Made by a program: the position numbers and the translations under genes
Assembly (NCBI GenBank): GCA_045602885.1
Contig: JAZSCJ010000022.1
Coordinates: forward strand, 1 to 58,036
Length of the DNA stretch: 58,036 bases
Source: Oscillospiraceae bacterium
GTDB taxonomy: Bacteria; Bacillota; Clostridia; Oscillospirales; Oscillospiraceae
Direction: 5' to 3'
Shown: positions 4,819 to 51,171 of the stretch, piece by piece
Layout: every line of letters begins with the position of its first letter
Position numbering within the stretch: the stretch's first letter is position 1
The notes under the pieces: generated by a model
What the model was told of the DNA's origin: nothing
Databases searched by the model: none
Seen by the model: only the letters and a program-made list of their open reading frames with translations

Positions 4819-4819
4819 A

Positions 4820-5245: not shown

Positions 5246-5255
5246 AATCTTCCTC

Positions 5256-6781: not shown

Positions 6782-6799
6782 GTAACCCCTCCTTCCTGT

Positions 6800-7949: not shown

Positions 7950-7951
7950 CC

Positions 7952-8341: not shown

Positions 8342-8353
8342 ACCATGACCTCC

Positions 8354-14039: not shown

Positions 14040-14052
14040 GATTTCCCTCCTG

Positions 14053-15309
14053 TCAAAATGCGCCCCGTTCCACACAAAGGGCGCTCATGCCGGTGTGCGG
14101 CTGCTGTGCAATCGTGGTGGCAAAATAGCGAATGTCATCCATGGCGTGGTCATGCTCTTTGCGTACCCGGTCTTTTCCACCGTCATCCTCCCAGCGATAC
14201 AGGGCAAACTCCCGAATGGCCGACAGACAATCCGGGCAAATCACCAGTCGCCCCTGCCGCAGCAGATCGGCCGTCAGACGAATGCCGCCCAGCACCTCGT
14301 TGCGGGCCTTGACCACCGGCCAGCCTGCACGGCGCAGCACTTCAATAAAGCTGGCCGCCGACGGATCGACCACAACACATTGGATGCTGCGCCCTCCGGC
14401 CAGTTGCTCCAGCGCCTGGGCGTACTCACCGTCGGTTTTCTGCCGACCCTCGGCCCGGGAATCGTAGTAATACTCCTTGACCCGATACCAAACGCCCTGC
14501 TGCAATCCCCACAACCCAAAGGAGGCCGGATTCACCGTGCCGTAATCGCAGGAGATGGCCCAGCGCTCAAAGGGGCCGGGCGGTGCCGGCTTGATGTAGC
14601 TCTCGTCGAAGAAGTCGTAGACCAGCCCCTCGGCGGCCACCCATTCCCCCAGCACAAACCGACGATAAAAAGTACCCCGAAAGACTCGCTCATACCGCTT
14701 GCGCACCGCCGGGCTCAACCCGGGATTGTCCTGCATGGTGAAATGCAGATACAGTGCGTTGCGCTGCTCGGCCTTGCAGATCCACTCCTTGTAAAACCAG
14801 TGCTCCGGCCCTTCGGGGTTGCAGGAAAACCAGAATCGGCTGCCCAGCACCGAGCAGCGTGCCATGGCCTGCTCCACAAAGGAGCGCGGCATGAGCGCCA
14901 CCTCATCCAGCAGCACACCGGCCAGCGTCAAACCCTGAATGTGGGCCGCGCTGCCCTCATCCCGTCCGCCAAACAGATAAAAGGTATTCTTCCTTCTTCC
15001 TGCGCGCACCGTTACGCAGCCACGGGATACCTTTTCCTCTACGGAAAACCCCAGTGACCGCAACTGCTCCAACGCCTGTCCCAACAGATTGCGCCGCACC
15101 GCTGCCGCCGTTTTTCCACACAGCGCGAACTGCTCGTTTTGAAACCGGGCCATACTCCACAGAAAAAAGGATATGGTCATGGCCAGCGTCTTGCCGCTTC
15201 GCACTGCGCCGTCGCAGATGATGGCCTCCCGATCCCGGTGGGGGGAATTGCCGCGCCACCAGGACAGGACCTGTTTCTGCTTTTGGGAAAAACTCTGCAC
15301 GCTCAGCAT
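14053..15309 (-). CDS. Terminase large subunit (PBSX/XtmB-like)
   Basis: 418 aa. Walker A-like DGAVRSGKT, a LLDE Walker B and a C-terminal nuclease region. Confidence 0.9.
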   Translation of the reverse strand: MLSVQSFSQKQKQVLSWWRGNSPHRDREAIICDGAVRSGKTLAMTISFFLWSMARFQNEQFALCGKTAAAVRRNLLGQALEQLRSLGFSVEEKVSRGCVTVRAGRRKNTFYLFGGRDEGSAAHIQGLTLAGVLLDEVALMPRSFVEQAMARCSVLGSRFWFSCNPEGPEHWFYKEWICKAEQRNALYLHFTMQDNPGLSPAVRKRYERVFRGTFYRRFVLGEWVAAEGLVYDFFDESYIKPAPPGPFERWAISCDYGTVNPASFGLWGLQQGVWYRVKEYYYDSRAEGRQKTDGEYAQALEQLAGGRSIQCVVVDPSAASFIEVLRRAGWPVVKARNEVLGGIRLTADLLRQGRLVICPDCLSAIREFALYRWEDDGGKDRVRKEHDHAMDDIRYFATTIAQQPHTGMSALCVERGAF

Positions 15310-18999: not shown

Positions 19000-19026
19000 T
19001 CAGACCTTACAATGGAGGATTGTATC

Positions 19027-20547
19027 ATGATATTGCGTGTTTTATGGAAGGGCAGCGAGCATATCATCCATGCCGAGTTGGGTGAAACCATTCTTGCGGC
19101 ACTGCAGCGCGGTGGCATTACCGCCCCGGACGCCCCCTGTGGCGGAAATGGCAAGTGCAAGAAATGTCTGGTCAGTGTGGACGATTTGGGCGAGGTGCTG
19201 GCCTGCCAGACGATCGTGACCGGGGAGCATACCGTGACCATTCCGGAAGAGCATGTGGGCGCAGTCATTGCTACGGACGGCGTATCGGTGGACTTCCCCC
19301 TGTCCCCGGCCGACGGTCTGGGTGCCGCCGTTGACATCGGCAGCACGACGGTGGTGATCCACCTGTATGATCGCACCAACGGTGTTTTGCTTGGCACCTG
19401 CAGCGGTGTCAACCGCCAGCGTGCCTTTGGTGCCGATGTGATTTCGCGCATTCAGTATACCATCGACCGCCCGGACGGACTGGAGCATCTGACCACGGCC
19501 ATCCGTGACCAGCTGCGCGAAGGAATGCAGCAGCTTTGCACCCAGGCCGGGCGCAAGATGGAGGAGCTGACCTATGTGACGATCGCCGGCAACACCGTCA
19601 TGGAGCACCTCTACGCATCCCTTTCTCCGGCCAGCATTGCAGTGGCGCCCTTCACGCCGCTGTCCCTGTTCGGTGAGGATTACAAGGGCGCTGATTTCGG
19701 CCTGCCCGAAGGAGCCAGGGTCTATCTGGCCCCGGCGGAGGCCGGTTATGTGGGCGGCGACATTACGGCCGGCATTTTGGCCAGCGGTGTCTATCGTGCG
19801 CAAAAAACGGTGCTCTTTTTGGATGTGGGCACCAACGGCGAAATGGCGCTGGGCAGCGCGTCGGAGGGCTTTTTGTGCTGTGCCACGGCGGCCGGCCCTG
19901 CCTTTGAGGGTGCGGCCATCTCGCAGGGTATGTCGGCGCAGGACGGCGCCATCAGCCGCGTGGAGCTGGTGGACGGTGCGTTGCAGGTGAGCGTGCTGGG
20001 TGAAACCCAGGCCGAGGGTATCTGTGGCTCCGGTCTGGTGGACGCGCTGGCGGTCATGCTGCAGTTGGGTGCGGTGGATGAAACCGGCCGCCTGCTCTCT
20101 CCCGATGAGGCCCCTGAAGCGGCACGGCCCTACTTGGTGGAGGGTGAGGACGAGGTGGTTTCCTTCCGTCTGACCGACCAGGTGGCCGTCAACGAAAAGG
20201 ATGTGCGCCAGTTGCAGCTGGCCAAGGCGGCCATCGCCGCCGGAATCCAAACCCTGTTGGAGGAGTGTGGCAAGAGTGAGGACGATGTGGAAGCGCTCTA
20301 TCTGGCCGGTGGATTTGGCAACTACATCCGCCGGGAAAGCGCCGCTGCCATTGGACTGATCCCACCCTCCATGCTGGAGCGCATCGTTGGCGTGGGCAAC
20401 AGCGCCGGCCAGGGCGCCGTGGCGGTGCTCTTGTCCGAGCAGGCTCGCGGTGAGCTGGATCAGCTGCCGGAAAAATGCCGCTATGTGGAACTTTCCGGAC
20501 ATCAGGGCTTTTCTGACAACTACATTGAGTGCATGATGTTTGAATAA
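19027..20547 (+). CDS. 2Fe-2S ferredoxin domain fused to an ASKHA (DUF4445) domain; corrinoid reductive-activase-like protein
   Basis: N-terminal CGGNGKCKKC...C plant-type ferredoxin motif, then DIGSTTVV and LDVGTNGE ASKHA phosphate motifs. ATG at 19027 lies 7 nt after GGAGGA. Confidence 0.8.
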   Translation: MILRVLWKGSEHIIHAELGETILAALQRGGITAPDAPCGGNGKCKKCLVSVDDLGEVLACQTIVTGEHTVTIPEEHVGAVIATDGVSVDFPLSPADGLGAAVDIGSTTVVIHLYDRTNGVLLGTCSGVNRQRAFGADVISRIQYTIDRPDGLEHLTTAIRDQLREGMQQLCTQAGRKMEELTYVTIAGNTVMEHLYASLSPASIAVAPFTPLSLFGEDYKGADFGLPEGARVYLAPAEAGYVGGDITAGILASGVYRAQKTVLFLDVGTNGEMALGSASEGFLCCATAAGPAFEGAAISQGMSAQDGAISRVELVDGALQVSVLGETQAEGICGSGLVDALAVMLQLGAVDETGRLLSPDEAPEAARPYLVEGEDEVVSFRLTDQVAVNEKDVRQLQLAKAAIAAGIQTLLEECGKSEDDVEALYLAGGFGNYIRRESAAAIGLIPPSMLERIVGVGNSAGQGAVAVLLSEQARGELDQLPEKCRYVELSGHQGFSDNYIECMMFE

Positions 20548-36531: not shown

Positions 36532-36570
36532 TCAAAGAAAAACGGCCGCCGGAATCGATCGGCGGCCGTT
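36532..36570 (-). terminator. Terminator of the nif-like/hyd-like operon
   Basis: AACGGCCGCCGgaatcgatCGGCGGCCGTT followed by tttctttg on the minus strand, 5 nt after the HydF-family stop. Confidence 0.8.
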
Positions 36571-36574
36571 TGCA

Positions 36575-37786
36575 TTATGCCTGGGCGGTCAGCAGCGCGT
36601 GCAGATGGGGGAAACAGCGCAGGGTGCGCTCCAGCGTGCCGGTGACCTGTGCCAGTGTGATGCCGTAATTGGTAAAGGGAATGTTTTGGTCCAGGGCACA
36701 GCGCATGCGGTACTGGATGTCGCGGTCGGTGTTCATGCAGCCGCCGCAATGGATGACCATGGCGTACCGGGACAGATCCTCCGGGAATTCGGTGCCGCTG
36801 CAGGTTTCAAACTGCAGCGTGCAACCGCAGTAGGCCTGCAGCAGCCGGGGGATCTTGACCGTGCCGATGTCGTTGCATTGGCGATGATGGGTGCAGCCCT
36901 CTGCCATAAGAATGATGTCGCCGTCACGCAGATTTTTGGCGGTGGCAATTCCCGCCACGGCAGTCTCCAAAAATCCCTTGTACTGGGCCATGACAATGGA
37001 AAAGGTGGTCAACGGCACCGATTGGGGGGTCACCTTGCTTACCACCGCCAGCGCCTGACTGTCGGTCACCACAAGGGCGGGTGGCTGGCGCAGAGCCTGC
37101 AGCGTGGCTTCCAGCTCGGTCTCCTTGGTGACCAGTGCGATGCCCTGCGCGTCCAAAATGTCACGAATGGTTTGCTGCTGGGGCAAAATGAGCCGGCCCT
37201 TGGGCGCCGATTCGTCAATGGGGCACACCAGCACGACGGTGTCCTGCGGCCGGAGTAGCTGGCCCACGATGCTCCGGTCGGGATCTCCCTTGGGCGCAAG
37301 CTGTGCGATGCGCTCTTTCAAAGCGGTAACACCCTCGCCGGTCAGCGCGCTGACATACAGGGCGCGGTCGGTTTGGTCCGGCCGATTGTGCTGCAGCTCG
37401 CATTTGTTGTAGGCGATCAGATGTGGGATCTGCTTTTGTGCGAAAATGTCCAGAAGTTGTCGGTCAAATTCATTGAGCCCGGCCTGCGCATCGACTACTA
37501 AAACGGCCAGGTCGGTCTTGTTGAGGATTTGCTTTGTTTTCAATACGCGCAGCTCACCCAGCTGGCCCACATCGTCAAAGCCCGGCGTGTCGATGATGAC
37601 CACCGGCCCCAGCGGGAGCAGCTCCATGGCCTTGCTGACCGGGTCGGTGGTGGTGCCCTTCACGTCGGATACCACCGCCAGTGCCTGCCCGGTCACAGCG
37701 TTGACCAGACTGGACTTTCCGGCGTTTCGACAGCCGAAAAAGCCGATGTGCAGCCGCTGGGAGGACGGAGTTTGATTCAAACTCAT
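36575..37786 (-). CDS. hydF: HydF-family GTPase ([FeFe]-hydrogenase maturase scaffold family)
   Basis: G1 GCRNAGKSSLVNA, G3 DTPGFDD, G4 YNKCE. C-terminal cluster motif EGCTHHRQC ... HCGGC. ATG at 37786 after GGGGAAGTG. Confidence 0.85.
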   Translation of the reverse strand: MSLNQTPSSQRLHIGFFGCRNAGKSSLVNAVTGQALAVVSDVKGTTTDPVSKAMELLPLGPVVIIDTPGFDDVGQLGELRVLKTKQILNKTDLAVLVVDAQAGLNEFDRQLLDIFAQKQIPHLIAYNKCELQHNRPDQTDRALYVSALTGEGVTALKERIAQLAPKGDPDRSIVGQLLRPQDTVVLVCPIDESAPKGRLILPQQQTIRDILDAQGIALVTKETELEATLQALRQPPALVVTDSQALAVVSKVTPQSVPLTTFSIVMAQYKGFLETAVAGIATAKNLRDGDIILMAEGCTHHRQCNDIGTVKIPRLLQAYCGCTLQFETCSGTEFPEDLSRYAMVIHCGGCMNTDRDIQYRMRCALDQNIPFTNYGITLAQVTGTLERTLRCFPHLHALLTAQA

Positions 37787-37803
37787 GTTGTGTTCACTTC
37801 CCC

Positions 37804-38928
37804 TCAAAAATCGGTGAACCCCGCATCCACGGTCGGGGCAAAGATGGCCTGTGCCTGCTGGGCGGTCAGTTCAATGCCAAACACGCTCTGGTAGTATTCC
37901 ATGGTTTTCTCGGTAATGTCAATGTCGGCAAACAGCTCGGGGTACACGGTTTTGGCGATCCACAAAAGGGTCACCGGCGTGTCCACCCCCGGCGTATAGC
38001 TGCGATACATCCCCAGCGGCATTTTGTACACCCGTTGATTCTGCACGGCGTCGATCCCGCTCCAGTCATAGCTTCCGATGCGGTTGTTCTCCAGATCGGC
38101 AGGCAGGGCGGTGTTGAAATTGGTCATGAGAATGGTGTCCGGGTTCCATTGGTAAAGCTGTTCCAGTGTGATTTTGACCGAGTTGTCTTCGGTCAGCTCC
38201 CCGGCCACGTTGATAGCGCCCACGGCGTCCGCCCACCATTGGCCGAAAAAGTGCTTGCCCGAAGTCACAATGGCGCTGTCGCTGTACTGGAAGAGAAAAA
38301 ATACCCGGGCACGCTCCTGTGGGGCAAGGCTTTGGGTACGCTCACGCACCAGCGCTGCCGCCTCGTCGCTGTAAGTGCGCACCAGCTGCGCACGGTCATT
38401 GGCGTCCTCCGGGAAGATTTGCTCCAGCAGATCGATCCATTGCCCCAGCGTTTCCACGGCATTGTATTCCCACTTGTTCACCGACACCGCCACGGCGTTG
38501 AATCCGGACTTGCGCAGGCTTTCACCCAGCAGCGTGCTGGACGCGCTGTAAAAAACCACCTGTGGGTCCAGTTTCATCAGCTCTTCGGCGTTGAAATCGG
38601 TGCCGCTGATGGCCGACGTGTCGGCCTGCAGAATTTCCGGATACAGCTGGGACAGCAGACTGTTTTCCGCTGCCGCCATACTGGTGGGCGCCATGGCAAC
38701 GATCTTGTCGGCCGAGTCAAAAAAGACCGAAAGTACCGAGGGCAGCGGGAAAATATCGCACACGGCAATGCGCTCAATGTTTTTGGGCAGCGTTACCTCA
38801 TACCCGGCGTGGTCGGTAATGACGATGTGTTGACCATCGTCTTGGGTCTGGGTCGGGGCTTGCGTGCATCCGGCTATGCCGGTGGCCAGCATACCGGCAG
38901 CCAAAAGCAGACAAATCAGTTTTTTCAT
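37804..38928 (-). CDS. ABC substrate-binding lipoprotein, Fe-chelate/cobalamin type (FhuD/BtuF-like, Peripla_BP_2)
   Basis: Lipobox LATGIAGC. Class III PBP-like sequence. The start lies 1 nt after the upstream stop. Confidence 0.82.
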   Translation of the reverse strand: MKKLICLLLAAGMLATGIAGCTQAPTQTQDDGQHIVITDHAGYEVTLPKNIERIAVCDIFPLPSVLSVFFDSADKIVAMAPTSMAAAENSLLSQLYPEILQADTSAISGTDFNAEELMKLDPQVVFYSASSTLLGESLRKSGFNAVAVSVNKWEYNAVETLGQWIDLLEQIFPEDANDRAQLVRTYSDEAAALVRERTQSLAPQERARVFFLFQYSDSAIVTSGKHFFGQWWADAVGAINVAGELTEDNSVKITLEQLYQWNPDTILMTNFNTALPADLENNRIGSYDWSGIDAVQNQRVYKMPLGMYRSYTPGVDTPVTLLWIAKTVYPELFADIDITEKTMEYYQSVFGIELTAQQAQAIFAPTVDAGFTDF

Positions 38929-38929
38929 G

Positions 38930-40087
38930 TTATTGCACTCCTAACAGGTCGGTTGCTTTGAGCTTGGTAAGGTCGGGGATGTCCTTGCGGCCGATGCGGC
39001 CGGAAAAGGCTTCGTGGGGCAGGGAGATGAAGTTGCACCCCTGGGGCAGGATGGCTTGGTAGAGCGGATCGGCAATGACCGTCCGGGCATCACGGCAGAC
39101 GGTTTGAATTTCTTCTTCCTCCATGACGGTGCGATCGCCGCAGGAGAGCACGCCGTCCAGCTCAGCCAGCGCCTCCAGCGTGGAAAGCACGCGAAACTGC
39201 TTGCCGCACTCCAGATAAATGGCCTGTGCCAGCGAGCGGGAGAGGATGCTCTCGCCAATGATGTAATCGCTGCCCTCCTGGGGGGCGCAATAGGAATCAA
39301 AGACCATGCGATTCTTTCCGTCCTGTGCCGCGGCGCGCAGCAGGGAAACGATCTGTTCACACAGCAAATCGCCCACCGGCGCGGCCACCACATAGGGTGT
39401 TCCAAACCGCTGCAGCAGCAGCTGGGCGGTTTTCATACCCACGCCGGAAATGACCAGATTGACTTGTGCCTGCCCGGCCCGGCGCAGATCGTCCAGCGTG
39501 CTGCCCATGGCCCAGGTGGAGATCACGTCAAAACCCTGCTCGCGCAGATAATTTTGCAGCGAGGGGATGGTACCCGAAAGGGAGAAATCCAGCGGGGTCG
39601 CGCCCAAAATGTTGACGGCATTTTTGCGCTTGTGGGTGGTGGGTTCCACGATACGTGCGGCCAGCGCCTGCAGCGCCTCTGATGCGCCGCACAGATAAGA
39701 GCGCATCCCGTTGGTCTGAAAGCCAAAGCAGGGGATGCCGGACGCCTGCTCAACCTCGTGGGCGATGGCCGGCAAATCGCATCCCGTCATCATGGGGATG
39801 GGCGTTCCAGCCAACGCGGCAAACTTGGGGTGCAGCTGCTCAATGGCGGCGAGCATATCCTGCACCACTTTGTCATCCTCGCCCAGAATGGCTTGCATTT
39901 CAGTCAGCGCGGAAATGAACACCATGCTGTCCGAATCATACCAGCGCGGCTCATCGTGGGTGCTGTAGGTGGAGTTGCAGCCCGAAGCGTCGTGCATGAC
40001 CACCATGCCGCCCAGCTCATACAGCGCCGAGCATACGCCGAACACGTCGGCGGAATAATTGGGTAATACCGTTCGTGCCTGTCTCAT
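38930..40087 (-). CDS. Nitrogenase component 1-type oxidoreductase subunit (NifK/NifN/BchB-like)
   Basis: 385 aa. HDASGCNSTY and PMMTGCD motifs typical of the Oxidored_nitro family. ATGA overlap with the upstream subunit gene. Confidence 0.8.
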   Translation of the reverse strand: MRQARTVLPNYSADVFGVCSALYELGGMVVMHDASGCNSTYSTHDEPRWYDSDSMVFISALTEMQAILGEDDKVVQDMLAAIEQLHPKFAALAGTPIPMMTGCDLPAIAHEVEQASGIPCFGFQTNGMRSYLCGASEALQALAARIVEPTTHKRKNAVNILGATPLDFSLSGTIPSLQNYLREQGFDVISTWAMGSTLDDLRRAGQAQVNLVISGVGMKTAQLLLQRFGTPYVVAAPVGDLLCEQIVSLLRAAAQDGKNRMVFDSYCAPQEGSDYIIGESILSRSLAQAIYLECGKQFRVLSTLEALAELDGVLSCGDRTVMEEEEIQTVCRDARTVIADPLYQAILPQGCNFISLPHEAFSGRIGRKDIPDLTKLKATDLLGVQ

Positions 40088-41403
40088 ATGCAGCTTTCAC
40101 ACCCCAATCCCTTTTCTTGGATCAACCGGGCGGTGTCCTTTTCCTCCCGGAAGGCGTCGATCATCAGCTGTGCCATGCGGGCAATGCCGGAAAAACCGTA
40201 CAATCCGCCGTTTTCCACCAGATTGACAAAATGGGCGCTGTTGGTGAAAAAGGCGGCCTTTTGGCCCAACGCCAGCGTTTTACCCTGGCTTTCCCGTACC
40301 AGCTTGCGCATACCCGCGTGGACGGTGGGATAAACCATCACATCGGGCGCGTGGTCACGCAGCCATTGGTAGTCCTCTTTTTCCTCTGCGCTGAAGCTGT
40401 CCAGAAACAGCGTGTCCACGCAAAAGCCGTGCTCCAGCAGCAGCCGGGCCAGCCCCAGCGGGCGCGAGGTAACGGTGTAGTCAATGGCAATGGGCGTGTT
40501 CCCAATGACCTGCGCAGCCTGTGCCAAAGCCTCGTTGGCCGCCTGCTCTTGGGCGTAGCCGCCGTCGTATTCCGTGCCAAGCTCCTGCGCCAGCGCCGTC
40601 AAATGCGCCCGAATTTCCTGCGCGCCATAGCTGACCGGCACATAGAGGTGCTCCCGTTCCAGCCGCTGGGCCAGTGCCCGGCCGCCCTCCTTGGCCACCG
40701 GCTGGGTGGTCAGAAACAGCGTGCTTTGGCCCATCTGCTGATACTGCTCGTAGCTTTGGCAGTCGGGGATCTGCAACACGGTCCACCCGGCGCGTTGGAT
40801 CAGCGCAACCAGATCACTTTGCGCCTCCATGGAAAAACAGTTTCCCAGAATGGCGCAGGTACGCTCTTGCGCCGGGGTGGGCCGGATCAGACTGTACAGC
40901 TGCCTGCGCATGATCTGATCCGGGGTCAAACCGCTTTTGCGCATGGTGGGGATCATGTAGCAATCGGTAAAATCCACCGTGGGAAATCGCTCACGCAGCA
41001 CCCGATAGCACATGGCAAGATCACAGCCCATGAAGTGGTGGATGCAGCTGCTGTAAACCAGTACGGCACGCGGCAGCTGGGGCAGGCGGTTGAGCACATC
41101 GCTCACGCCCTCGATGAGCAGCTGCTCCATGTCGCCGTTGAGCACATTGTGCTCCTCGATGGCAACGGTGGAAAACCGCCCGGTCAGATTCATCTCGGCG
41201 GCGGACAGCACCACGCCACGCAGACAGCCGGCGGCGCAGACAAAAATCTCGTGGGCCTCGGGCAGCAGCATACCTACGTGCACGATGGTCCATGTGCCCC
41301 GGGCCGGTGCGCTGTATTCCAGCCCCGAGGCAAAGGGGGCAGGGAAGGCCGCGTCGCTCATGGCGACGCGGGGGGCTTGTGTGCCGCCCAGCCGCTTCAG
41401 CAT
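40084..41403 (-). CDS. Nitrogenase component 1-type oxidoreductase subunit (NifD/NifE/BchN-like)
   Basis: About 439 aa. [10 protein letters not shown] and [12 protein letters not shown] motifs. The probable start MLKRLGG at 41403 overlaps the NifH-like stop (ATGCTGA). The track start is 41418. Confidence 0.78.
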
Positions 41404-42161
41404 AGGGCCACCCCGCATTCTTGCAGAATGGCATCAGCCAGCGCCCGGTACTCCTGCGCCATCGCGCTGTCCGGGAAGGCTTCGATCACGGTTTGGTTGC
41501 GTTCCTCGGCCTCCTGCACCGTTTCGCTGCGGCTCAGCGTGCCCACAATGTGGCTGCCCACATCCTCGGCCAGCTCCTGCACCTTTTCCAGCTCGTTTTT
41601 CACGTCGCGCCGGTTCAAAATGATACCGCCCAGTCGGGCATAGCCACGGTCCTTGAAGTTTTCCACCGCCATGGCGATGTTGGCCGCGGCGTGCAGGGCC
41701 ATATTTTCGCCCGAAGTAATGATAAACACTTGATCGGCATAGCCGCCGCGCATGGGCATGGAAAACCCGCCGCAAACCACGTCGCCCAATACATCGTAAA
41801 ACACAACGTCGGGCTGATATTTCTCATACGCGCCCTTTTCGGCCAGCTTTTCCAGCGCCGCAATGATGCCGCGCCCGGCACAGCCCATGCCCGGCGTCGG
41901 GCCGCCGGCCTCCACGCAGATCACGCCGCCAAATCCGATGTGTACCATATCCTCCAGCGAAAAATCGTTGTTTCGCTCCCGCACCAGATCCAAAACGGTG
42001 TCCACGCGCTCCAAATGGTGCAGACTGCCGGTGGAATCGGCCTTGGGGTCGCACCCGATCTGCATCACCTTCAGTCCGCGCTCAGCCAGAGCGGCGGCCA
42101 GATTGGATACGGTGGTGGACTTTCCGATCCCGCCCTTTCCATAAACGGCAATTTTAATCAT
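41397..42161 (-). CDS. NifH/BchL/CfbC-family ATPase (nitrogenase iron protein-like)
   Basis: [10 protein letters not shown] Walker A and CDPKADST switch I. Both 4Fe-4S ligand cysteines are present ([18 protein letters not shown]). Confidence 0.9.
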
Positions 42162-43242
42162 GATGCTCCTCCTTGTTTTCGTAATTCTTGTGATCGCCGC
42201 GCCCGACCACGATCTCCATGCCCAGCGACTCCACCTGCGCGCGCAGCAGCTGCAGGCTCTCCTCGGCCGTCAGCTGCGCGCCGGCCTTGTGGTCGTAAAG
42301 CATGTAATCCTTGCGTGTGTTCTGGGGAGAAAGATTGGGCATGACCACATTGCATCCGGCCAGAATCCCCTGTATCCGCCCGTCCTCGGCCAGCGTGCCA
42401 AGGGCGGTGGTGGAGGGCAGCAGCACATCGGGCAGCATGATCCGGGTCAAACTCAGACAAAACAGCGTCAGCGAACGGCTGCCCGGGGGGAACTGGGCAA
42501 AGGGGGTGTCTTGATGGGGCAGGAAGGGGCCGATGCCCACCATGGCCGGCTGGAACCGTCCCATAAATTCCATGTCCTCGGCCAGACTTTCCGCGCTTTG
42601 ATAGGGCGCGCCCACCATCATGCCGCAGCCCACTTGATAGCCGATCTGCTTCAATGTCTCCAGACATTGCATGCGGTGCTCAAAGGACATCTGCGCGGGA
42701 TGAAGCTGCTGGTAATGGGCGTACTGCGCCGTTTCATGGCGCAGCAGATACCGATCCGCCCCGGCGGCAAACAGCGCCTCATAGCTGGCCCGACTTCGCT
42801 CACCGATGGACAGCGTCACGGCGCAGTCGGGATAGTTGTGCTTGATCTGTGCAATCAGCGCGACCATCTTCTCGTCGGTCCAGTATCCGTCCTCGCCGCT
42901 TTGCAGCACGAAGGTCCGATACCCCAGCCGATACCCCTCCGCACAGCACTGCAGAATGTCCTCCTGGGAAAGGCGGTAGCGGTGCACATTGCCGTTGGAC
43001 TTGCGGATGCCGCAGTACAGACAGTCATTTTTGCAGATGTTGGAAAACTCAATGATGCCCCGGAAGAAAATCTGGTTTCCAAACTGCTGTCGGGTAATGG
43101 CCCGGGCCAGTTGGGCGGCGTATTCTCTATCCTGCTGTGTAAAGGTGGAAAACAGGGCCACCCAGTCCTCCCGTGCAAGGCACTTGCGCGCGTCAAGGGT
43201 TTGGATGCGTTCCAGATTGGTCAATGGTCTCACCTCCGGCAA
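42154..43242 (-). CDS. hydE: HydE-family radical SAM enzyme
   Basis: [18 protein letters not shown] (CX3CX2C) followed by VLQSGED, as in HydE. The likely true start is TTG at 43224, 8 nt after GGAGG. Confidence 0.83.
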
Positions 43243-44290
43243 TGTAAGTGGTTTTCACGTGGGCGCCCGGCAAGCGGGACAGCCCATCGGTCAGGCACAG
43301 CACGCGCTCCACCGGCGCGTCCAGAGTCAGCGTGATGATGTTGACCCCCGCCTTGCGATAGGGCAGTCCCATGCGCCCGATCATGTACTGATTGTAATCA
43401 CGCAACAGGTGATTCATCGCCCCGGCGCTTGCGTCGCCCTCCATCAGCACGGTGATCCCGGCAATGACGCGCTCGGGCTTGGCCTGCGTACCCGGCAGGC
43501 GCTCGTCAATGGCCACCGGGATCACATCGGCGTAGGTCTGATCGGCGGTCTCCATGGCACCGATGACCGAGCGCACGCCAAAATACCGCAAAATGTTTTC
43601 CTCGGTCACCACCTGGCGCACCTCACCGAAGCAGTGGCGGCCGTCCTTTGCCAGCATCAGCGCCTTATTGGCGTGGCGCAGGGCGTGGGCCGGATAATGG
43701 GTGTTGAAAATGCAGGTAATGCCTTCCGATGCCAGCTGCGCGATCAAATCCAGCACCAACAGCTGATTCTGGAAATCCAGATTGGATTCCGGCTCGTCCA
43801 AAATCAAAACCTGCGGATCGGACACCAGCGCCCGGGCGATCAGAACCATCTGGAACTCGCCGCCGCTGAGCTGACTGCACAACCGATGGCGTACCGGCTC
43901 CAGTTTGGTGCGCTCCAAAACCCGATCCACTGCGCGGCGGTCGGCCTCCCCCGGCGTGGAAAATACGCCGATGGTCGCCGCCCGGCCCAGCAGGATCATT
44001 TCCTCCACGCTGTAATTGGCCGGGGCCTGCTTGGCTTGCGGCACATAGGAAATGTGCTGCCACAGCGTTTTTTGCGGAATGTCCTTCAAACTCGTCCCAT
44101 CCAGCAGGCTCTCACCGCTGTCCCATGCAAGCAGTCCCATGATGCACCGCAGCAGCGTTGTCTTACCCGCGCCGTTGGGGCCCAAAATGGTCAGCACGTC
44201 ACCGGGCTGCAGGGAAAAGTTGATGCCCGACAAGATCTGCCGCTCATGGCCGGGGTAGGTAAACGACCCGTCCTTCACTTGAAAGCTCAT
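43193..44290 (-). CDS. ABC transporter ATP-binding protein (Fe-chelate/B12 type) fused to a C-terminal TM1266-like ACT/NikR-C-like domain
   Basis: Start MSFQVKDG at 44290 (ATGA overlap with the permease stop). Walker A GPNGAGKTT, LSGGEFQ, LILDEP. The C-terminal ~85 aa are paralogous to the 81-aa protein at 45460-45705. Confidence 0.85.
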   Translation of the reverse strand: MSFQVKDGSFTYPGHERQILSGINFSLQPGDVLTILGPNGAGKTTLLRCIMGLLAWDSGESLLDGTSLKDIPQKTLWQHISYVPQAKQAPANYSVEEMILLGRAATIGVFSTPGEADRRAVDRVLERTKLEPVRHRLCSQLSGGEFQMVLIARALVSDPQVLILDEPESNLDFQNQLLVLDLIAQLASEGITCIFNTHYPAHALRHANKALMLAKDGRHCFGEVRQVVTEENILRYFGVRSVIGAMETADQTYADVIPVAIDERLPGTQAKPERVIAGITVLMEGDASAGAMNHLLRDYNQYMIGRMGLPYRKAGVNIITLTLDAPVERVLCLTDGLSRLPGAHVKTTYIAGGETIDQSGTHPNP

Positions 44291-45321
44291 AAACTCCACC
44301 CCCTGTTTTTGCGCAGAAGATAGATAAAGAAAGGCGCGCCGATCATGGCCGTCAAAACGGAAATGGGGATCTCCTTGGCACTCACGGTGCGGGCGATGGT
44401 GTCCACCGCCAGCAGGAAAGCCGCACCCCAGCCCACGCAGGCCGGCAGCAGCGCCACGTTGTTGCTGCCGTACCGCATACGGCAGATGTGGGGCACCAGA
44501 AGGCCCACCCAGCCCACCTGCCCACACATGGAAACGCAGGATGCCGTGATCACGGTGGCGCAAAGCTGGGACACCATGCGCAGCCGCTTGATGTTCACGC
44601 CCGCGCTGACGGCCTCGTCCTCGGTCAGCACCAGCAGATTCATGCGCCAGCGGATCAAAAGCAGAACGACCATGCCTGCCAGAATGGGCACGCCGCCCAG
44701 CAAAAGCATACCGCCGTCGGCCTGCTCCAGACTGCCCATTAGCCAATAGGTGATGGACGGCAGCTGCGATTCCGTGTCCGCCGTGAACTTGACAAAGGAC
44801 ACCAGCGAGCTGAACAGCGACCCCATCATGATACCGGCCAGAATGGGCGTGCTTTTCGAGCTGCCCAGACCGCGGCCCACCACGCCGGTCAGAAGAACCG
44901 CCAGCAGACCAAACACCAGCGCCAGAAGCTGAACCCCCACACCGTTCCAACCCAGCAGCAGCGCCGCCGCCGCGCCAAAGCTGGCCCCGGATGCCACGCC
45001 CAGCGTGTCCGGGGTGGCCAGCGGATTGGAAAACACGCTTTGATAGGTGCAGCCCGATACCGAAAGCCCTGCCCCCACCAAAACGGCAAGCACCAGCCGG
45101 GGCAGGCGCATGGACCAGACCACAATATTCGCCTGCGCAGAAACCGTGCAGGGCACGCCCAGCTTGCTCAAAAGGGCGCCTGCCACGTCCATGGGCGAAA
45201 GCGCCATGCGCCCGATGCACAATCCGGCAAAAAACAGCACCAGGGGCAGCAGGATGACCCCGGCCAGTTGCCGGCGGCTCAAGCCCGCGCCAAAGCGCGC
45301 AGTATGCGTTGTCTTACTCAT
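44287..45321 (-). CDS. ABC transporter permease, FecCD/BtuC family
   Basis: 344 aa. MRLPRLVLAVLVGAGLSVSG and a polytopic profile typical of FecCD. Confidence 0.88.
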   Translation of the reverse strand: MSKTTHTARFGAGLSRRQLAGVILLPLVLFFAGLCIGRMALSPMDVAGALLSKLGVPCTVSAQANIVVWSMRLPRLVLAVLVGAGLSVSGCTYQSVFSNPLATPDTLGVASGASFGAAAALLLGWNGVGVQLLALVFGLLAVLLTGVVGRGLGSSKSTPILAGIMMGSLFSSLVSFVKFTADTESQLPSITYWLMGSLEQADGGMLLLGGVPILAGMVVLLLIRWRMNLLVLTEDEAVSAGVNIKRLRMVSQLCATVITASCVSMCGQVGWVGLLVPHICRMRYGSNNVALLPACVGWGAAFLLAVDTIARTVSAKEIPISVLTAMIGAPFFIYLLRKNRGWSL

Positions 45322-45360
45322 AAAAAATACCGCCGCATCCCGAAAAAAGGATACAGCGGT
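45322..45360 (-). terminator. Intra-operon intrinsic terminator / attenuator directly upstream of the permease start codon
   Basis: The minus strand reads ACCGCTGTATCC-ttttttcg-GGATGCGGCGGT-atttttt-ATG: a 12-bp stem including 2 G-U pairs, then a U-run. Confidence 0.55.
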
Positions 45361-45459
45361 CGTGCAAAAATCGCCCGGGTCCGCATCGTATCTTTCACCT
45401 CAAGGTTAGTTTCGGTGTCAGGGGATGCTTCACTTTCTATATAAATTTGTAAAATGCGT

Positions 45460-45705
45460 TTACGCTTTGGAAAATACCGCCTTGGCCGCAATGCCGGGCA
45501 GTCGGCCCAGCGCGCCCGTCAGACTGTTGATTTTGTCGCTGGGTGCGTCCATGGCAAGGGAAATGATGCTGATGCCCTTGTCGCGGTAGGGAATGCCCAT
45601 TCTTCCGATGATGTATTGTCCGTATTGATGGAGAAGCACATTCAAGTCTTCCACTGCATCCATATTCTCAACGATAATGCTGATGCAGGCCACTCTTGTT
45701 TCCAT
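45460..45705 (-). CDS. TM1266-like small ACT/NikR-C-terminal-like protein (family annotated as putative iron-only hydrogenase system regulator)
   Basis: 81 aa: ACISIIVENMDAVEDLNVLLHQYGQYIIGRMGIPYRDKGISIISLAMDAPSDKINSLTGALGRLPGI. RBS GGTGAGGTGAG. Confidence 0.78.
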   Translation of the reverse strand: METRVACISIIVENMDAVEDLNVLLHQYGQYIIGRMGIPYRDKGISIISLAMDAPSDKINSLTGALGRLPGIAAKAVFSKA

Positions 45706-45722
45706 TCTCTCACCTCACCGTA

Positions 45723-45751
45723 ATTATATCAAACCCCCACACCCATTGCAA
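45723..45751 (-). promoter_or_regulatory. Sigma-A type promoter of the nif-like/hyd-like operon
   Basis: The minus strand reads TTGCAA, 17 nt, then TATAAT with an upstream TG (tTGaTATAAT), about 20 nt before the RBS of the TM1266-like gene. Confidence 0.6.
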
Positions 45752-45838: not shown

Positions 45839-46441
45839 TCACCCCACCGCGAAGAACCCGTGCTCCATGGCCACGTTGCGGATGGCATACGAAGACAAGC
45901 ATGCGCTCTCGCTGCCATCATCTCCCATCCACACCTGCCAGAACAAAAACTCCTCGGTCAACCGGTCACAGGGTGTCCCCGGCAGATAAAGCAAAAACTC
46001 GGTGCCGCCCTCCAGACCGTATGGCCCGGCTGCAACGTACCGCACGTCGTCTATGATCTCCTCCGTGCCGGGAGTTTTTGTCATGGTCAGCTCAGACAGC
46101 TGTAATGAGTAGGTATATTCGTCGATCTGCCCCATGATCTGAAAAGCGCCCTCAAATCCGCAGACATACACCGTCCCCTCCGGATAACCGTCTCCGGTTT
46201 CGCCCATATTGGTATCGTGGTACGTCCCGTAAAATGTTCCATCCCGGTTCAGATGCAATTCGGTTGACCACGCTCCCACACCGCTGCAAAAAGTAAAACT
46301 TTGCGCAACCTTGCCCGGGAATGGCAGGACATCTTCCTCCATGGGCTTGTGCATCGTCGCATCATCCTGCTCCGGTGCAGGATTTCCGCAGCCGCTTAAA
46401 AGCAACGCACAAATCGTCATCCAGAAAAGCAGTCGTTTCAT
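45839..46441 (-). CDS. Hypothetical lipoprotein
   Basis: Start MKRLLFWMTICALLLSGCG (lipobox) at 46441 after GGGAGG. The track ORF extension to 46810 runs through a tRNA gene. Confidence 0.65.
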   Translation of the reverse strand: MKRLLFWMTICALLLSGCGNPAPEQDDATMHKPMEEDVLPFPGKVAQSFTFCSGVGAWSTELHLNRDGTFYGTYHDTNMGETGDGYPEGTVYVCGFEGAFQIMGQIDEYTYSLQLSELTMTKTPGTEEIIDDVRYVAAGPYGLEGGTEFLLYLPGTPCDRLTEEFLFWQVWMGDDGSESACLSSYAIRNVAMEHGFFAVG

Positions 46442-46515
46442 CGTGAACCTCCCGTTAGAAATAGATTGGAAATTTGCAAAAAGAACGCCTCCGAATTGCT
46501 CCGAAAGCGTTCTGC

Positions 46516-46599
46516 TGGTGCGCCTGAAGGGACTCGAACCCACACGCTGAAAGCACGAGAACCTAAATCTCGCATGTCTACCAATTCCATCACAGGCGC
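46516..46599 (-). tRNA. tRNA-Leu (anticodon TAG), CCA encoded
   Basis: Acceptor GCGCCTG/CAGGCGC, anticodon stem-loop CGAGA-ttTAGgt-TCTCG, long variable arm, GGTTCGAGTCC T-arm. Confidence 0.9.
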
Positions 46600-46613
46600 G
46601 CAAATCGAAAGAT

Positions 46614-46642
46614 ATTTTAGCATTAGGGGGTAGAAAAGTCAA
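46614..46642 (-). promoter_or_regulatory. Promoter of tRNA-Leu
   Basis: The minus strand reads TTGACT, 17 nt, TAAAAT, ending about 14 nt before the tRNA 5-prime end. Confidence 0.55.
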
Positions 46643-46691
46643 TCGGGAAGGGCTATAATACAGACCAAAGCTCCAGGAGGAAGTGACACTT

Positions 46692-47531
46692 ATGAAACGA
46701 CCGGCTCGCGTGGCGGCCATCCATGATATTTCCGGCTTCGGCCGCTGTTCGCTGACCGTGGTGCTGCCCGTGCTGGGTGCCATGGGGGCCGAGTGCTGCC
46801 CACTGCCCACCGCCTTCCTGTCGGCCCAGACGGCTTACCCTAAGTCCGACCGGGCGGTTTTTCTGGATATGACCGACCAGTTGGCCCGTACCGGCAGCCA
46901 TTGGCAGGAGCTGGGCGCGCAGTTTGACGCCATCTACAGCGGCTTTCTGGGCAGTGAGACCCAGATCGGCCTGCTGGGCGATTTCATCCAAACCTTCCGC
47001 AAAGAAACTACCTTGGTGGTGGTCGACCCCGTCATGGGCGACTGGGGCAAGCCCTACCGCACCTATACCCCCGACCTGTGCCGCCGCATGGGCGAGCTGG
47101 CCGAGCATGCCGATGTCATCACCCCCAATCTGACCGAAGCGGCCATCCTGCTGGGGGAGGTCTACGACCCCACGCCGGATGAGGATAAAGTGCGCGATTG
47201 GTTAAATTGCTTGTCCCTCAACGGAAAACGCTCGGTGGTCATTACCGGCGTCACCCCTGCTCCGGGCATGGTGGGCGCGGCCTGTCTGGATCGTGCTACC
47301 GGGGAAATTTCCATGCCCGCCGCGCCGGAGGTTCCCGTGGCCTATTCGGGTACCGGCGACCTGTTTGCCAGCGTCATGCTGGGCGCGCTGCTGCGCGGGC
47401 AAAGCCTGCATCAAGCCACCGCCCTGGCAGTGGAGTTCGTGCAAAAGTGCGCTGCCTTCACCCGCGCGCTGGACGGCGACCGCCGGGAGGGCGTCATGTT
47501 TGAACGCCTGCTGGGCGACTTGATCGGATAA
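46692..47531 (+). CDS. pdxK: Pyridoxal/pyridoxamine kinase
   Basis: AAIHDISGFGRCSL, GFLGS, VVDPVMGD, ITPNLTEA and GTGDLFAS motifs. ATG at 46692 after GGAGGA. Confidence 0.87.
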   Translation: MKRPARVAAIHDISGFGRCSLTVVLPVLGAMGAECCPLPTAFLSAQTAYPKSDRAVFLDMTDQLARTGSHWQELGAQFDAIYSGFLGSETQIGLLGDFIQTFRKETTLVVVDPVMGDWGKPYRTYTPDLCRRMGELAEHADVITPNLTEAAILLGEVYDPTPDEDKVRDWLNCLSLNGKRSVVITGVTPAPGMVGAACLDRATGEISMPAAPEVPVAYSGTGDLFASVMLGALLRGQSLHQATALAVEFVQKCAAFTRALDGDRREGVMFERLLGDLIG

Positions 47532-50983: not shown

Positions 50984-51068
50984 TGGTGGAGGAGGGTGGA
51001 TTCGAACCACCGAAGTCAGCGACAACAGATTTACAGTCTGCCCCCTTTGGCCACTCGGGAACTCCTCC
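50984..51068 (-). tRNA. tRNA-Tyr (anticodon GTA), CCA encoded
   Basis: GGAGGAG acceptor, anticodon loop ctGTAaa, long variable arm, GGTTCGAATCC T-arm. Confidence 0.92.
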
Positions 51069-51095
51069 ATATGCAATTACAGGGCGATCAAGCCT

Positions 51096-51171
51096 TGGAG
51101 CTGGTGGACGGACTCGAACCCCCGACCTGCTGATTACAAATCAGCTGCTCTACCAACTGAGCTACACCAGC
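51096..51171 (-). tRNA. tRNA-Thr (anticodon TGT), CCA encoded
   Basis: GCTGGTG acceptor, TAGCTCAGTTGGTAGAGC D-arm, anticodon loop ttTGTaa, GGTTCGAGTCC T-arm. Confidence 0.92.

Follow-up and report, generated by a model that had tools for sequence, protein, structure and literature searches.

The nine-gene operon described here, on the minus strand of a 58,036-nt stretch of Oscillospiraceae DNA (the window), is a real, conserved and uncharacterised variant that combines a nitrogenase-like trio, the maturases HydE and HydF, and an ABC importer. Its TM1266-family gene and the leader RNA that follows form an element common to hydE-hydG-hydF operons and a lone hydG gene elsewhere, which therefore places the operon in a regulon for [FeFe]-hydrogenase maturation.

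Organization of the operon

An ORF check of the window confirmed nine open reading frames (g1 to g9), all on the minus strand. Transcription is predicted to start from a sigma-70-type promoter upstream of g1, TTGCAA-17-TATAAT (45723..45751, minus strand; 10/12 matches, extended -10 TG), which is followed by the ribosome-binding site GAGGTGAG and the ATG of g1 at 45705. It is predicted to end at an intrinsic terminator (36540..36571, minus strand), a 12-bp stem with 9 GC pairs and the U-run TTTTTCTTT. Read directly from the sequence, the junctions g2/g3 and g6/g7 are ATGA overlaps, g4/g5 and g5/g6 overlap by 8 and 7 nt, respectively, and g7 and g8 are separated by 1 nt. Genes g3 and g4 overlap by 32 nt; the latter has a TTG start at 43224, preceded by the ribosome-binding site GGAGG. 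The translationally coupled junctions, the one promoter and the one final terminator suggest that the nine genes are one transcription unit. The initial annotation had placed genes, promoter, final terminator and junctions correctly, and the promoter and final terminator of its single operon stand. The 138-nt spacer between g1 and g2, however, contains a structured RNA that is conserved, as well as a 13-bp hairpin with a U-run (45360-45329), so that the single operon has to be regarded as gated after its first gene. As reported earlier, hydG and hydA are missing from the 58 kb: neither hydG, a second hydE or hydF, nor HydA signature motifs were found in the window.

Four genes encode the importer and its putative regulator. 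Gene g1 (45460..45705) encodes an 81-aa TM1266-family ACT-like protein, a putative ligand-sensing regulator (PF21699, 104 bits; TIGR03959, 107 bits, cut-off 60.8) that matches the TM1266 structure 2NZC (E=7e-11). Gene g2 (44287..45321) encodes a FecCD/BtuC-type (type II) ABC importer permease (PF01032, 270 bits) that stays under each equivalog cut-off tested (BtuC, FecC, FhuB). The product of g3 (43193..44290) is an ABC ATPase (PF00005, 116 bits) whose C-terminal part, from about residue 277 to 347, is a TM1266-like ACT domain (PF21699, 54.5 bits) that is 43% identical to g1. Gene g8 (37804..38928) encodes a Peripla_BP_2 substrate-binding lipoprotein (PF01497, 50 bits) whose lipobox Cys21 is invariant in homologues. 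Its closest PDB entries, 4ovk (139 bits) and then HI_1472/MolA (60 bits), are uninformative on the ligand.

A nitrogenase-like trio outside the characterised families

The NifH-like ATPase/[4Fe-4S] reductase g5 (41397..42161; PF00142, Fer4_NifH, 310 bits) remains below the curated cut-offs for nifH (333 bits vs 394) and CfbC (330 bits vs 402). Its cluster ligands C94 and C130, as well as C37 and C82, are invariant across 68 homologues. The 439-aa D/E-like component-1 subunit g6 (40084..41403; PF00148, Oxidored_nitro, 65 bits) has BchN as its top curated model (31 bits vs a cut-off of 324), and its AF2 model (pLDDT 85) adopts a component-1 fold. The 385-aa K/N-like subunit g7 (38930..40087; PF00148, 109 bits) scores highest with NifE (66 bits vs a cut-off of 505); its closest PDB matches are a NifEN fusion (E=2.8e-10), followed by NifD, BchB and NifN. 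All three proteins fall far short of all curated cut-offs for nitrogenase, DPOR and CfbCD, which bears out the earlier placement of the trio outside characterised families. The trio probably represents a deeply branching system made of a NifH and NifEN/DPOR-type partners.

The earlier question of whether the D/K-like proteins retain cluster-ligating cysteines can be answered: some are kept. Conserved residues of g6 are C56, C60, C120, C148, C435/C438, H42, H51, H122 and H123, and C37 is the sole invariant cysteine of g7. The pair probably holds one inter-subunit [4Fe-4S] cluster, with C60, C120 and probably C56 of the D-like subunit and C37 of the K-like subunit as candidate ligands. The D-like subunit has in addition a site rich in Cys and His, and its C-terminus ends in a CxxC tail. 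The 2+1 cysteine pattern mapped in g6/g7 is the same as that of the Firmicutes clade that Dos Santos et al. 2012 (PMC3464626) found beside hydrogenase maturases.

HydE and HydF

Both maturase assignments made earlier hold far above curated cut-offs. The radical SAM maturase HydE is encoded by g4 (42154..43224; TIGR03956, 526 bits vs 254.6; 265 bits against the T. maritima HydE structures), the GTPase/scaffold HydF by g9 (36575..37786; TIGR03918, 532 bits vs 325.6), in which the HydF dimer and tetramer domains are both found. The most likely start of hydF is the ATG at 37786 (MSLNQ...) rather than the TTG at 37807 of the longest ORF, which had been chosen initially, because the N-termini of homologues begin likewise; the g8/g9 overlap therefore becomes a short gap. 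HydE identity is 61% within and 56% between the groups of nif-type and hydEGF-type operons, with overlapping ranges, and no deep split separates g4 from the HydE of hydEGF operons. Owing to the family scores and the absence of a paralogue split, HydE and HydF of this operon look like ordinary H-cluster maturases, not a diverged paralogue pair.

Conservation of the module

A relative of the D-like subunit is encoded in at least 580 Clostridia species genomes; Coprococcus catus and Intestinibacter bartlettii are examples of carriers. Among 80 loci compared, the NifH-like and D-like genes are present in 80/80 and the K-like gene in 79, with the same gene order; no other neighbours of the nif-like module are conserved across these loci. 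The neighbourhood recurs with a variable complement of maturases: 31 of 58 uncut loci have both hydE and hydF, 12 hydE only, 4 hydF only and 11 neither. The association itself is not new: in Firmicutes, NifHEN-like genes next to genes for hydrogenase maturation and next to ABC transporters had already been noted by Dos Santos et al. 2012 (PMC3464626), who also saw tandem NifH-D-K sets. Two such sets in tandem, resembling nifDK plus nifEN, also occur in some of the genomes considered here (locus L134). The operon still fits neither the canonical nif nor the canonical hyd arrangement, and the statement that no characterised system has this composition is upheld; most such nitrogenase-like clades are still without an assigned function in a 2026 review.

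A leader RNA shared with hydrogenase maturation operons

The RNA between g1 and g2 (45382..45428, minus strand) is a conserved leader of about 48 nt, supported by a covariance model and covariation. It reads CUGAC-RY-CGAAA-loop-UUGAG-RY-G-RAAG-AUAC, is predicted to fold into a rod-like hairpin interrupted by two purine internal loops in tandem, and has no match in Rfam 15; by this comparison it is a newly described element. The covariance model (R1) finds the leader in 44 of 59 assessable related nif-like loci (twice in locus L011), on the operon strand except for two marginal matches (E about 1), whereas the other 15 yield no motif at default filters. There are 36 double-change cells vs 12.9 in shuffles (0/500 shuffles as high), and the chance expectation of the pattern in the window is 0.00. 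An outer P1 helix is present in a subset of leaders only. The predicted terminator/attenuator that follows (45329..45360, minus strand; 13-bp hairpin plus U-run) abuts the start codon of g2. For 131 of 133 distinct leaders elsewhere, a terminator hairpin with a U-run lies no more than 170 nt from the motif. The 3' tail of the motif is complementary to the 5' arm of the terminator (-9.1 kcal/mol; shuffled tails, -5.1 kcal/mol).

When metagenomes were scanned independently for the leader pattern, 120 loci were returned, and almost all of those that are uncut have a TM1266 gene next to the motif. The leader lies ahead of hydE-hydG-hydF in about 35 loci, contig-truncated ones counted, and also ahead of hydF-hydE-hydG, of a lone hydG, of nif-like trios and of two kinds of ABC importer (FecCD-type and SsuA-type). 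HydG in leader-linked loci was identified with 938 bits. The TM1266 gene and the leader accompany hydEGF operons in loci without nif genes as well. The earlier suggestion of Fe-S/organometallic cofactor assembly gains support from this sharing. Co-regulation could also arise from a common signal (iron, sulfur or redox state, for example) and not from a common pathway.

Possible functions

Our preferred, still tentative reading is that the nif-like/importer part may be an accessory branch of the H-cluster maturation regulon, which would acquire a metal precursor or prepare it. Less probable, at perhaps one chance in a few, is a role in metal (iron) acquisition: a siderophore-, heme- or corrinoid-like chelate would be imported, then reduced or dismantled with ATP by the nitrogenase-like reductase at very low potential to free the metal, and the sole reason for the presence of hydE/hydF would be that H-cluster assembly shares the regulator and is a large consumer. 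This account fits the FecCD-type permease, the lipoprotein of the Peripla_BP_2 family and the relatedness of the ATPase to those of heme, corrinoid and Fe-dicitrate systems; operons that have just an importer behind the leader fit it too. In C. difficile RT078, the locus tags of a NifH gene and of an iron ABC permease are two apart, and both genes are listed among the iron-related ones with differential expression. However, none of the known chelate reductases resembles nitrogenase, the regulon includes an SsuA-type importer that is not of the iron-chelate type, no Fur-type evidence was obtained, and the extra Cys/His residues and CxxC tail of the D-like subunit suggest cluster or metal handling over a simple substrate pocket.

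It is unlikely that the D/K pair is a NifEN-like scaffold for a distinct organometallic or Fe-S cofactor, with HydE and HydF moonlighting for a client other than [FeFe]-hydrogenase. The formal analogy to NifB/NifH/NifEN, the additional conserved ligands of the D-like subunit and the tandem sets of L134 speak for such a scaffold; HydE and HydF are, however, undiverged from their hydEGF-operon versions, they are missing from many nif-like operons, and no conserved client-enzyme candidate is found nearby. The proposal, also made in the initial annotation, that an imported tetrapyrrole or corrinoid is reduced in the manner of DPOR, COR or CfbCD is very improbable. Characterised nitrogenase-like enzymes with a single [4Fe-4S] cluster all reduce tetrapyrroles, BchN is the top, very weak PDB sequence match of g6 (E=0.0017), and g8 matches IsdE weakly (41 bits). 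Yet the BchN, BchB and CfbD models score only 27-56 bits vs cut-offs of 268-490, the g6 fold resembles NifK, NifN and MarD at least as much as DPOR (TM 0.57-0.64, similar for NifK, NifN, NifE, BchN and MarD), neither tetrapyrrole or cobalamin genes nor such a riboswitch are linked to the operon, and the regulon partners are hyd maturases. Least credible and already disfavoured is a chance landing of housekeeping hydE/hydF beside an unrelated nif-like/transporter cluster: many Clostridia have their hydE, hydF and hydG genes dispersed, and 11 of 58 loci lack both maturases, but the insertion points are identical across several Clostridia families and hydEGF operons, including those in loci without nif genes, have the TM1266 gene and leader in common with this operon.

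As an accessory branch of H-cluster maturation, the operon would work as follows. Transcription from the promoter before the TM1266 gene would have to read through leader and terminator to reach the permease gene. The leader may be an attenuator responsive to a ligand or to the TM1266 protein; given the pairing of its tail with the terminator arm, a stabilised motif should favour termination. The TM1266-like domain fused to the importer's ATPase (g3) would, by analogy with MetN and ModC, stop import when that same ligand is plentiful. The type II importer and the trio would take up a metal-containing compound and prepare it, by ATP-driven reduction or scaffolding, as a precursor of the H-cluster or of Fe-S clusters. 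HydG would be encoded elsewhere in the genome, probably behind the same leader, as for a lone hydG on another contig. The module cannot be essential, because many organisms with [FeFe]-hydrogenase do without it. Defined in-vitro maturation, which is reported to succeed with HydE, HydF, HydG and general factors, speaks against this reading. Since the leader RNA is predicted to control ordinary hydrogenase-maturation operons elsewhere as well, the nif-like enzyme probably helps to build or supply the metal cofactor of the hydrogenase.

Operon architecture and gene content

The operon consists of nine co-directional genes on the minus strand (45705 to 36575). This run, proposed in the initial annotation, is borne out by an ORF listing and by direct reading of every junction. 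The permease and ATPase genes overlap by ATGA, as do the genes for the D-like and K-like subunits; overlaps of 8 and 7 nt join hydE to the nifH-like gene and the latter to the D-like gene, and a 1-nt gap separates the K-like gene from the binding-protein gene. The hydE gene starts with TTG at 43224, behind a GGAGG, and overlaps the ATPase gene by 32 nt. A consensus scan recovered both boundaries of the unit, namely the promoter (TTGCAA-17-TATAAT with extended TG, 45751-45723) and the terminator at the operon end, a 12-bp GC-rich hairpin with a U-run (36571-36540). The spacer of 138 nt between the first and second genes is not empty and holds a structured motif and a hairpin with a U-run; the operon forms one gated transcription unit. 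The most likely start of hydF is the ATG at 37786 (MSLNQ..., alike in homologues). A promoter-like site (TTGACA-18-AATACT with TG, 37893-37922, minus strand) lies upstream of hydF in the 3' end of the binding-protein gene and may be an internal hydF promoter or a chance match.

Gene families were assigned with Pfam and NCBIfam models, and the families proposed earlier (PF00142, PF00148, PF01497, PF01032, HydE and HydF) all match above their cut-offs. The first gene codes for a TM1266-family protein (TIGR03959, 107 bits versus a cut-off of 60.8). It is followed by genes for a FecCD permease (PF01032, 270 bits), an ABC ATPase with a second TM1266-like domain (PF00005, 116 bits; PF21699, 54.5 bits), HydE (TIGR03956, 526 bits versus 254.6), a NifH-like protein (PF00142, 310 bits; nifH model, 333 bits versus 394), two Oxidored_nitro proteins (PF00148, 65 and 109 bits, gathering score 28.6), a Peripla_BP_2 lipoprotein (PF01497, 50 bits) and HydF (TIGR03918, 532 bits versus 325.6). 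The window therefore holds the HydE, HydF and TM1266 equivalogs of [FeFe]-hydrogenase maturation. Across the 58-kb window a search found no second hydE or hydF and, as already reported from the sequence, no hydG, no HydA client and no nifB, nifE, nifN or nifV.

HydE and HydF are bona fide maturases. HydE carries the CxxxCxxC motif and scores 265 bits to T. maritima HydE. Between nif-type and hydEGF-type operons its identity is 56%, compared to 61% within them, with no deep split; given these overlapping identities, the protein is thus an ordinary maturase and no specialised paralogue, which is evidence for orthology with the canonical enzyme. HydF combines a GTPase domain with HydF_dimer and HydF_tetramer domains and the sequence CTHH...HCGGC (CxH...HCxxC cluster motif), and from the equivalog score and these motifs we infer that it is the orthologue of the canonical maturase.

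The transport genes encode a type II (BtuCD/FecCD-like) importer, with PF01032, PF00005 and PF01497 all above gathering scores. No substrate-specific equivalog cut-off in NCBIfam is reached, and PDB structures related to the binding protein reveal no ligand class. The importer ATPase shares its ACT-like domain with the stand-alone regulator. We take this C-terminal domain, of a ligand-binding type, to be analogous to those of the trans-inhibited MetNI and ModBC importers.

The nitrogenase-like trio

A NifH-type ATPase and two adjacent component-1 subunits, both above the PF00148 gathering score, place the trio in the nitrogenase superfamily (NFL). The NifH-like protein has the P-loop GKGGIGKS, and its [4Fe-4S] cysteines, C94 and C130, do not vary among 68 homologues. 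For the D-like subunit AlphaFold (AF2) gives a model (pLDDT 85.3) that has a component-1 fold and matches component-1 proteins with probability 1.00. The nearest structural relative of this subunit could not be singled out: NifK, AnfK, VnfK, NifN, NifE, BchN and MarD are matched alike (TM 0.57-0.64, 10-19% identity), and NifK, NifN, NifE, BchN and MarD are about equally far. Among all PDB sequences the best match of the D-like subunit is BchN (E=0.0017), and those of the K-like subunit are a NifEN fusion (2.8e-10), then NifD, BchB and NifN. From the Mar/Isr group (Group IV-C/F), the methylthio-alkane reductase (Mar) structure matches the K-like subunit at E=0.006 only and the D-like model at TM ~0.6, which is no closer than the other families come.

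Equivalog models for NifD, NifK, NifE, NifN, BchN, BchB and CfbD give 17-66 bits versus cut-offs of 268-654. The K-like subunit is neither NifD (42 bits versus 654) nor NifK (17 versus 427), and the D-like subunit matches neither of these two models. NifEN identity is rejected as well (nifE 66 bits for the K-like and 22 for the D-like subunit versus 505; nifN 28 versus 327), as are DPOR (BchL 208 bits versus 345; BchN 27-31 versus 324-420; BchB 56 versus 490) and CfbCD (CfbC 330 bits versus 402; CfbD 29 versus 268; two different D/K subunits here). True nitrogenases (Nif/Vnf/Anf) are excluded by the incomplete P-cluster set of six Cys and by the lack of cofactor ligands and model matches. As the initial annotation suspected, the three proteins reach the curated cut-off of no characterised family, and by these profile scores they would belong to none. 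When 1.84 billion representative proteins were searched with a family profile (A1), only 1105 scored at E<=0.001 (441 at 1e-30), and the family is therefore a discrete, distant clade.

The trio is deep-branching and has a reduced cysteine set. Residue conservation over about 70 homologues was mapped through HMMER alignments. Of the P-cluster and FeMo-co ligands whose presence had been in question, two D-like cysteines and one K-like cysteine stand, and the six-Cys P-cluster set is absent. In the D-like subunit C60 occupies the alpha-C88/NifE-C62 position and C120 the alpha-C154/NifE-C124 position, the first ligand position being an invariant Arg (R35); in the K-like subunit C37 alone is kept, at the beta-C95/NifN-C44 position. 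This reduced set (C60, C120, C37) points to a single inter-subunit [4Fe-4S] cluster, NifEN/DPOR-like, and no P-cluster. C56, four residues ahead of C60, is a candidate third ligand. Further conserved D-like residues are C148, C127, C215, H42, H51, H122/H123 and a C-terminal GCxxC, an extra Cys/His set that appears to have no counterpart in known families. The GCxxC tail (40084-40101), whose C435 and C438 are found in 92-94% of homologues, is predicted to be disordered (pLDDT below 50) and has features that suggest the handling of metal or clusters. Five family members (P0132, P0151, P0159, P0182, P0206) are 730-1010 aa long, which suggests NifH-D or D-K fusions.

Conservation across genomes

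A scan with the D-like profile, using one genome per species, matched at least 599 stretches, of which at least 580 were confirmed. The best 80 of these loci are all from Clostridia (Oscillospiraceae, Lachnospiraceae, Acutalibacteraceae, Christensenellales, Intestinibacter, Clostridium). Searched by tblastn with the nine proteins, all 80 contain the NifH-like and D-like genes and 79 the K-like gene, and the neighbourhood recurs as anticipated, in the order TM1266, FecCD, ABC/ACT, [HydE], NifH, D, K, binding protein, [HydF]. The brackets mark the variable members: among 58 loci not cut by a contig end, 31 have both hydE and hydF, 12 hydE only, 4 hydF only and 11 neither, Intestinibacter bartlettii being an example of the last group. 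ORF clustering of the 80 loci revealed no further conserved neighbour, such as hydG or hydA (next commonest cluster in at most 5 of 80). HydA signature motifs were present in just 2 of 200 loci. The exact sequence of the window's D-like protein has no match in the contig index.

In one metagenome locus (L134, re-oriented 2024-8406) a single TM1266 gene and leader are followed by two tandem NifH-D-K-like sets, the second of which has a shorter D/K pair (425 and 347 aa) with more resemblance to NifE; the arrangement recalls nifDK plus nifEN, and the duplicates reported for Coprococcus catus and Dorea longicatena. Clostridioides difficile may also carry a version of the module: in RT078 the gene for an iron ABC permease (J5O10_08600) is separated by two locus tags from one for NifH (J5O10_08590), an 'iron-only hydrogenase system regulator' of TM1266 type (J5O10_11210) is encoded elsewhere, and all three are listed as differentially expressed (PMC11633334).

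A leader RNA and its regulon

The spacer behind the TM1266 gene contains an RNA motif (45382-45428, minus strand) with the pattern CUGAC-RY-CGAAA-loop-UUGAG-RY-G-RAAG-AUAC. It lies about 20 nt upstream of a terminator of 13-bp hairpin and U-run (45329-45360) that abuts the start codon of the permease gene, and it is repeated at the equivalent position in related loci. At gathering scores Rfam 15 detects three tRNAs only and leaves the leader unmatched; at E<=5 the leader region yields Xanthomonad sRNA and snoRNA models, both far below their gathering scores. These searches rule out a known riboswitch.

With a covariance model, 44 of 59 assessable nif-like operons show the motif. It is located at the operon 5' end, on the same strand as the operon, and either precedes the TM1266 gene or follows it closely. 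The helix shows 36 double-change cells versus 12.9 in shuffles, and 98.7% of its cells are paired versus 19-55% with the partner slid, both counted on a model-fitted alignment that is biased towards structure; RNAalifold returns the same stem from a plain MAFFT alignment. An independent exact-pattern scan of metagenome contigs gave 120 loci, for a pattern with 0.00 expected chance occurrences in the window; two matches inside ORFs are apparent chance matches. In nearly all uncut cases a TM1266 gene begins 100-270 nt past the motif or ends just before it.

The genes downstream of the motif fall into few classes. About 35 loci, including truncated contigs, continue with hydE-hydG-hydF (HydG 938 bits versus 312), two with hydF-hydE-hydG (a further 4 are truncated after hydF), and about 14 with the nif-like trio, with or without hydE/hydF. 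The operon in the window is hence part of a regulon whose other members are H-cluster maturases. In a single locus (L163, re-oriented 2332-4010) a lone hydG (487 aa) directly follows the terminator of the motif and no TM1266 gene is close by, the layout expected for genomes that have hydE and hydF in the nif-like operon. A FecCD-type importer alone follows in 7 loci (plus one truncated after FecCD). In about 34 of the 120 loci (L085, L119, L123, L197 and others) leader and TM1266 gene precede an SsuA-family importer, consisting of a binding protein, an SsuC/SaoP-like permease and a short ABC ATPase; in L197 these genes are followed by one for a GltD/NuoF-like Fe-S flavoprotein. The SAO selenoprotein locus of Haft is unrelated.

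A terminator lies at most 170 nt from the motif in 131 of 133 distinct leaders (median 40 nt). The 3' tail of the motif pairs with the 5' arm of the terminator at -9.1 kcal/mol, versus -5.1 kcal/mol for shuffled tails. Motif and terminator are accordingly predicted to be an attenuator: the TM1266 gene would be transcribed directly from the promoter, with read-through into the other eight genes gated, a layout that presumably resembles HutP-type systems. An outer P1 helix was considered as a general feature of the motif and rejected, as it is seen in a subset of leaders only and lies near shuffle energy (mean -2.7 versus -2.0 kcal/mol); it is therefore not claimed, and any ON/OFF direction is putative. 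That a TM1266 gene accompanies the motif almost constantly favours an RNA that acts with the TM1266 protein over direct metabolite binding, and leaders with no adjacent TM1266 gene imply a sensor able to work in trans, or an RNA that can work alone. We regard the leader as an undescribed candidate riboswitch or protein-dependent attenuator of many Clostridia.

Other features of the window

A terminase large subunit-like ORF (Terminase_6N, 12891-15309, minus strand), whose neighbour ORFs have no family match, suggests that a prophage, or what remains of a phage, lies at a distance of about 20 kb from the operon. A RACo-like protein (corrinoid-enzyme reductive activator with a 2Fe-2S domain; 19012-20547, plus strand) is encoded beside a VanW-like protein; no link of this gene to the operon was found. 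A tRNA-Leu (46516-46599, minus strand) lies just upstream of the operon promoter region, and a tRNA-Tyr/tRNA-Thr pair is found at 50984-51171 (minus strand). The long ORF 45839-46810, which overlaps the tRNA-Leu, is probably over-called; its 3' part, small, lipoprotein-like and with no Pfam match, may be the sole real portion.

Discussion

The finding is a real, conserved and uncharacterised nitrogenase-like variant inside an [FeFe]-hydrogenase maturation regulon. The initial annotation knew of no characterised system of this composition. The literature that was searched agrees in that it contains no characterisation of the module and nothing functional on TM1266 or the leader RNA; the association of nitrogenase-like and maturase genes, however, had already been seen. 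Dos Santos et al. (2012, BMC Genomics 13:162) described nitrogenase-like genes adjoining hydrogenase maturation genes and ABC transporters, with the 2+1 cysteine pattern and, in some genomes, tandem duplicated sets, in a sentence or two that record and interpret the genomic finding speculatively and include no regulon, leader RNA, conservation statistics or experiment (PMC3464626). Judged by their description, the Firmicutes NifHEN-like clusters have the same cysteines as the trio, two D/E-like (equivalent to alpha-C88 and alpha-C154) and one K/N-like (equivalent to beta-C95/NifN C44). The bare gene association is therefore not new. A 2026 NFL survey in Chemical Reviews assigns functions to Nfa, CfbCD, Mar, Isr, DPOR and COR only, treats all other clades as uncharacterised and makes no reference to HydE or HydF (PMC13474568). 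The present analysis adds statistics on scale and architecture, evidence for the orthology of HydE and a probable one of HydF, the extra conserved ligands and, most importantly, a regulon of leader RNA and TM1266 that turns an anecdote about neighbours into a specific, testable link.

Related in regulation are the canonical TM1266-hydE-hydG-hydF operons (L130 and others), which share the HydE and HydF equivalogs, the TM1266 gene and the same leader and terminator. The window differs in having no hydG and in placing the trio and a type II importer between the maturase genes. The combination of regulator gene, RNA element and terminator is, we assume, analogous to HutP and PyrR attenuation, with the difference that the leader could be a protein-independent riboswitch, given the lone hydG and some operons with no adjacent TM1266 gene.

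In the mechanism that we propose, the TM1266 domain would bind one effector that controls both transcription and transport. Trio and importer would acquire a metal-containing precursor, which would then be reduced or scaffolded for H-cluster or Fe-S assembly, and the two would form a dispensable accessory branch. Taken as a whole, this mechanism seems to us almost as likely to be right as wrong.

Its main rival, which we consider doubtful, is a metal-chelate acquisition module merely co-regulated with the maturases. The loci in which a FecCD-type importer alone follows the leader fit such a module; the SsuA-type importer of the regulon, which is of no iron-chelate type, speaks against it.

A nitrogenase-like enzyme and ABC uptake share one regulon also in MarHDK/IsrHDK, C-S bond reductases co-regulated with sulfonate/taurine importers; an SsuA-type importer occurs elsewhere in the present regulon. 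Mar, in contrast, has a P-cluster, an L-like cluster, full Cys sets and the NifB-like MarB, and no sulfur-assimilation genes are linked to the operon in the window.

We think it improbable that the operon makes a distinct new cofactor. NifH plus NifEN, the scaffold on which FeMo-cofactor matures, likewise joins a NifH-like ATPase and a D/K-type heterodimer, with genes for a radical SAM enzyme and a scaffold protein as neighbours, has interface Cys at the NifE C62, C124 and NifN C44 positions, and provides both the best curated model (NifE) and the best PDB match of the K-like subunit. The trio departs from it in the Arg at the first NifE ligand position, in lacking NifB, NifX, NifV and cofactor ligands, and in the extra C56, C148, H122/H123 and C-terminal CxxC of the D-like subunit.

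A tetrapyrrole reductase is very unlikely: DPOR/COR and CfbCD are also ATP-dependent NifH-like reductases whose catalytic part probably has a single inter-subunit [4Fe-4S], but the trio scores far below their curated cut-offs and is accompanied by no tetrapyrrole pathway genes, and CfbD is homomeric whereas the D/K pair here is heteromeric. Chance juxtaposition of genes, which the variable presence of hydE and hydF might suggest, is scarcely credible beside the same gene order in the best 80 loci.

Returning to the accessory branch, we put forward, tentatively, the broader reading that an importer-fed NifH/NifEN-type machine is an unrecognised H-cluster accessory branch of gut and rumen Clostridia, in a regulon (hydE/G/F, the trio and two importers) that would be switched by a new attenuator RNA with TM1266 or its ligand.

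To our knowledge, nitrogenase-like enzymes and [FeFe]-hydrogenase maturases, the best-studied builders of complex iron cofactors, have always been treated apart. A shared operon and regulatory RNA join both systems in hundreds of species of gut and rumen Clostridia and provide a testable entry point. They offer a candidate function for one of many orphan nitrogenase-like clades and a candidate role for TM1266, a protein from structural genomics for which we know of neither ligand nor mechanism, and the leader RNA is a simple handle for finding the effector. The finding also prompts one to ask how gut bacteria that produce hydrogen control and supply the assembly of their hydrogenase cofactor.
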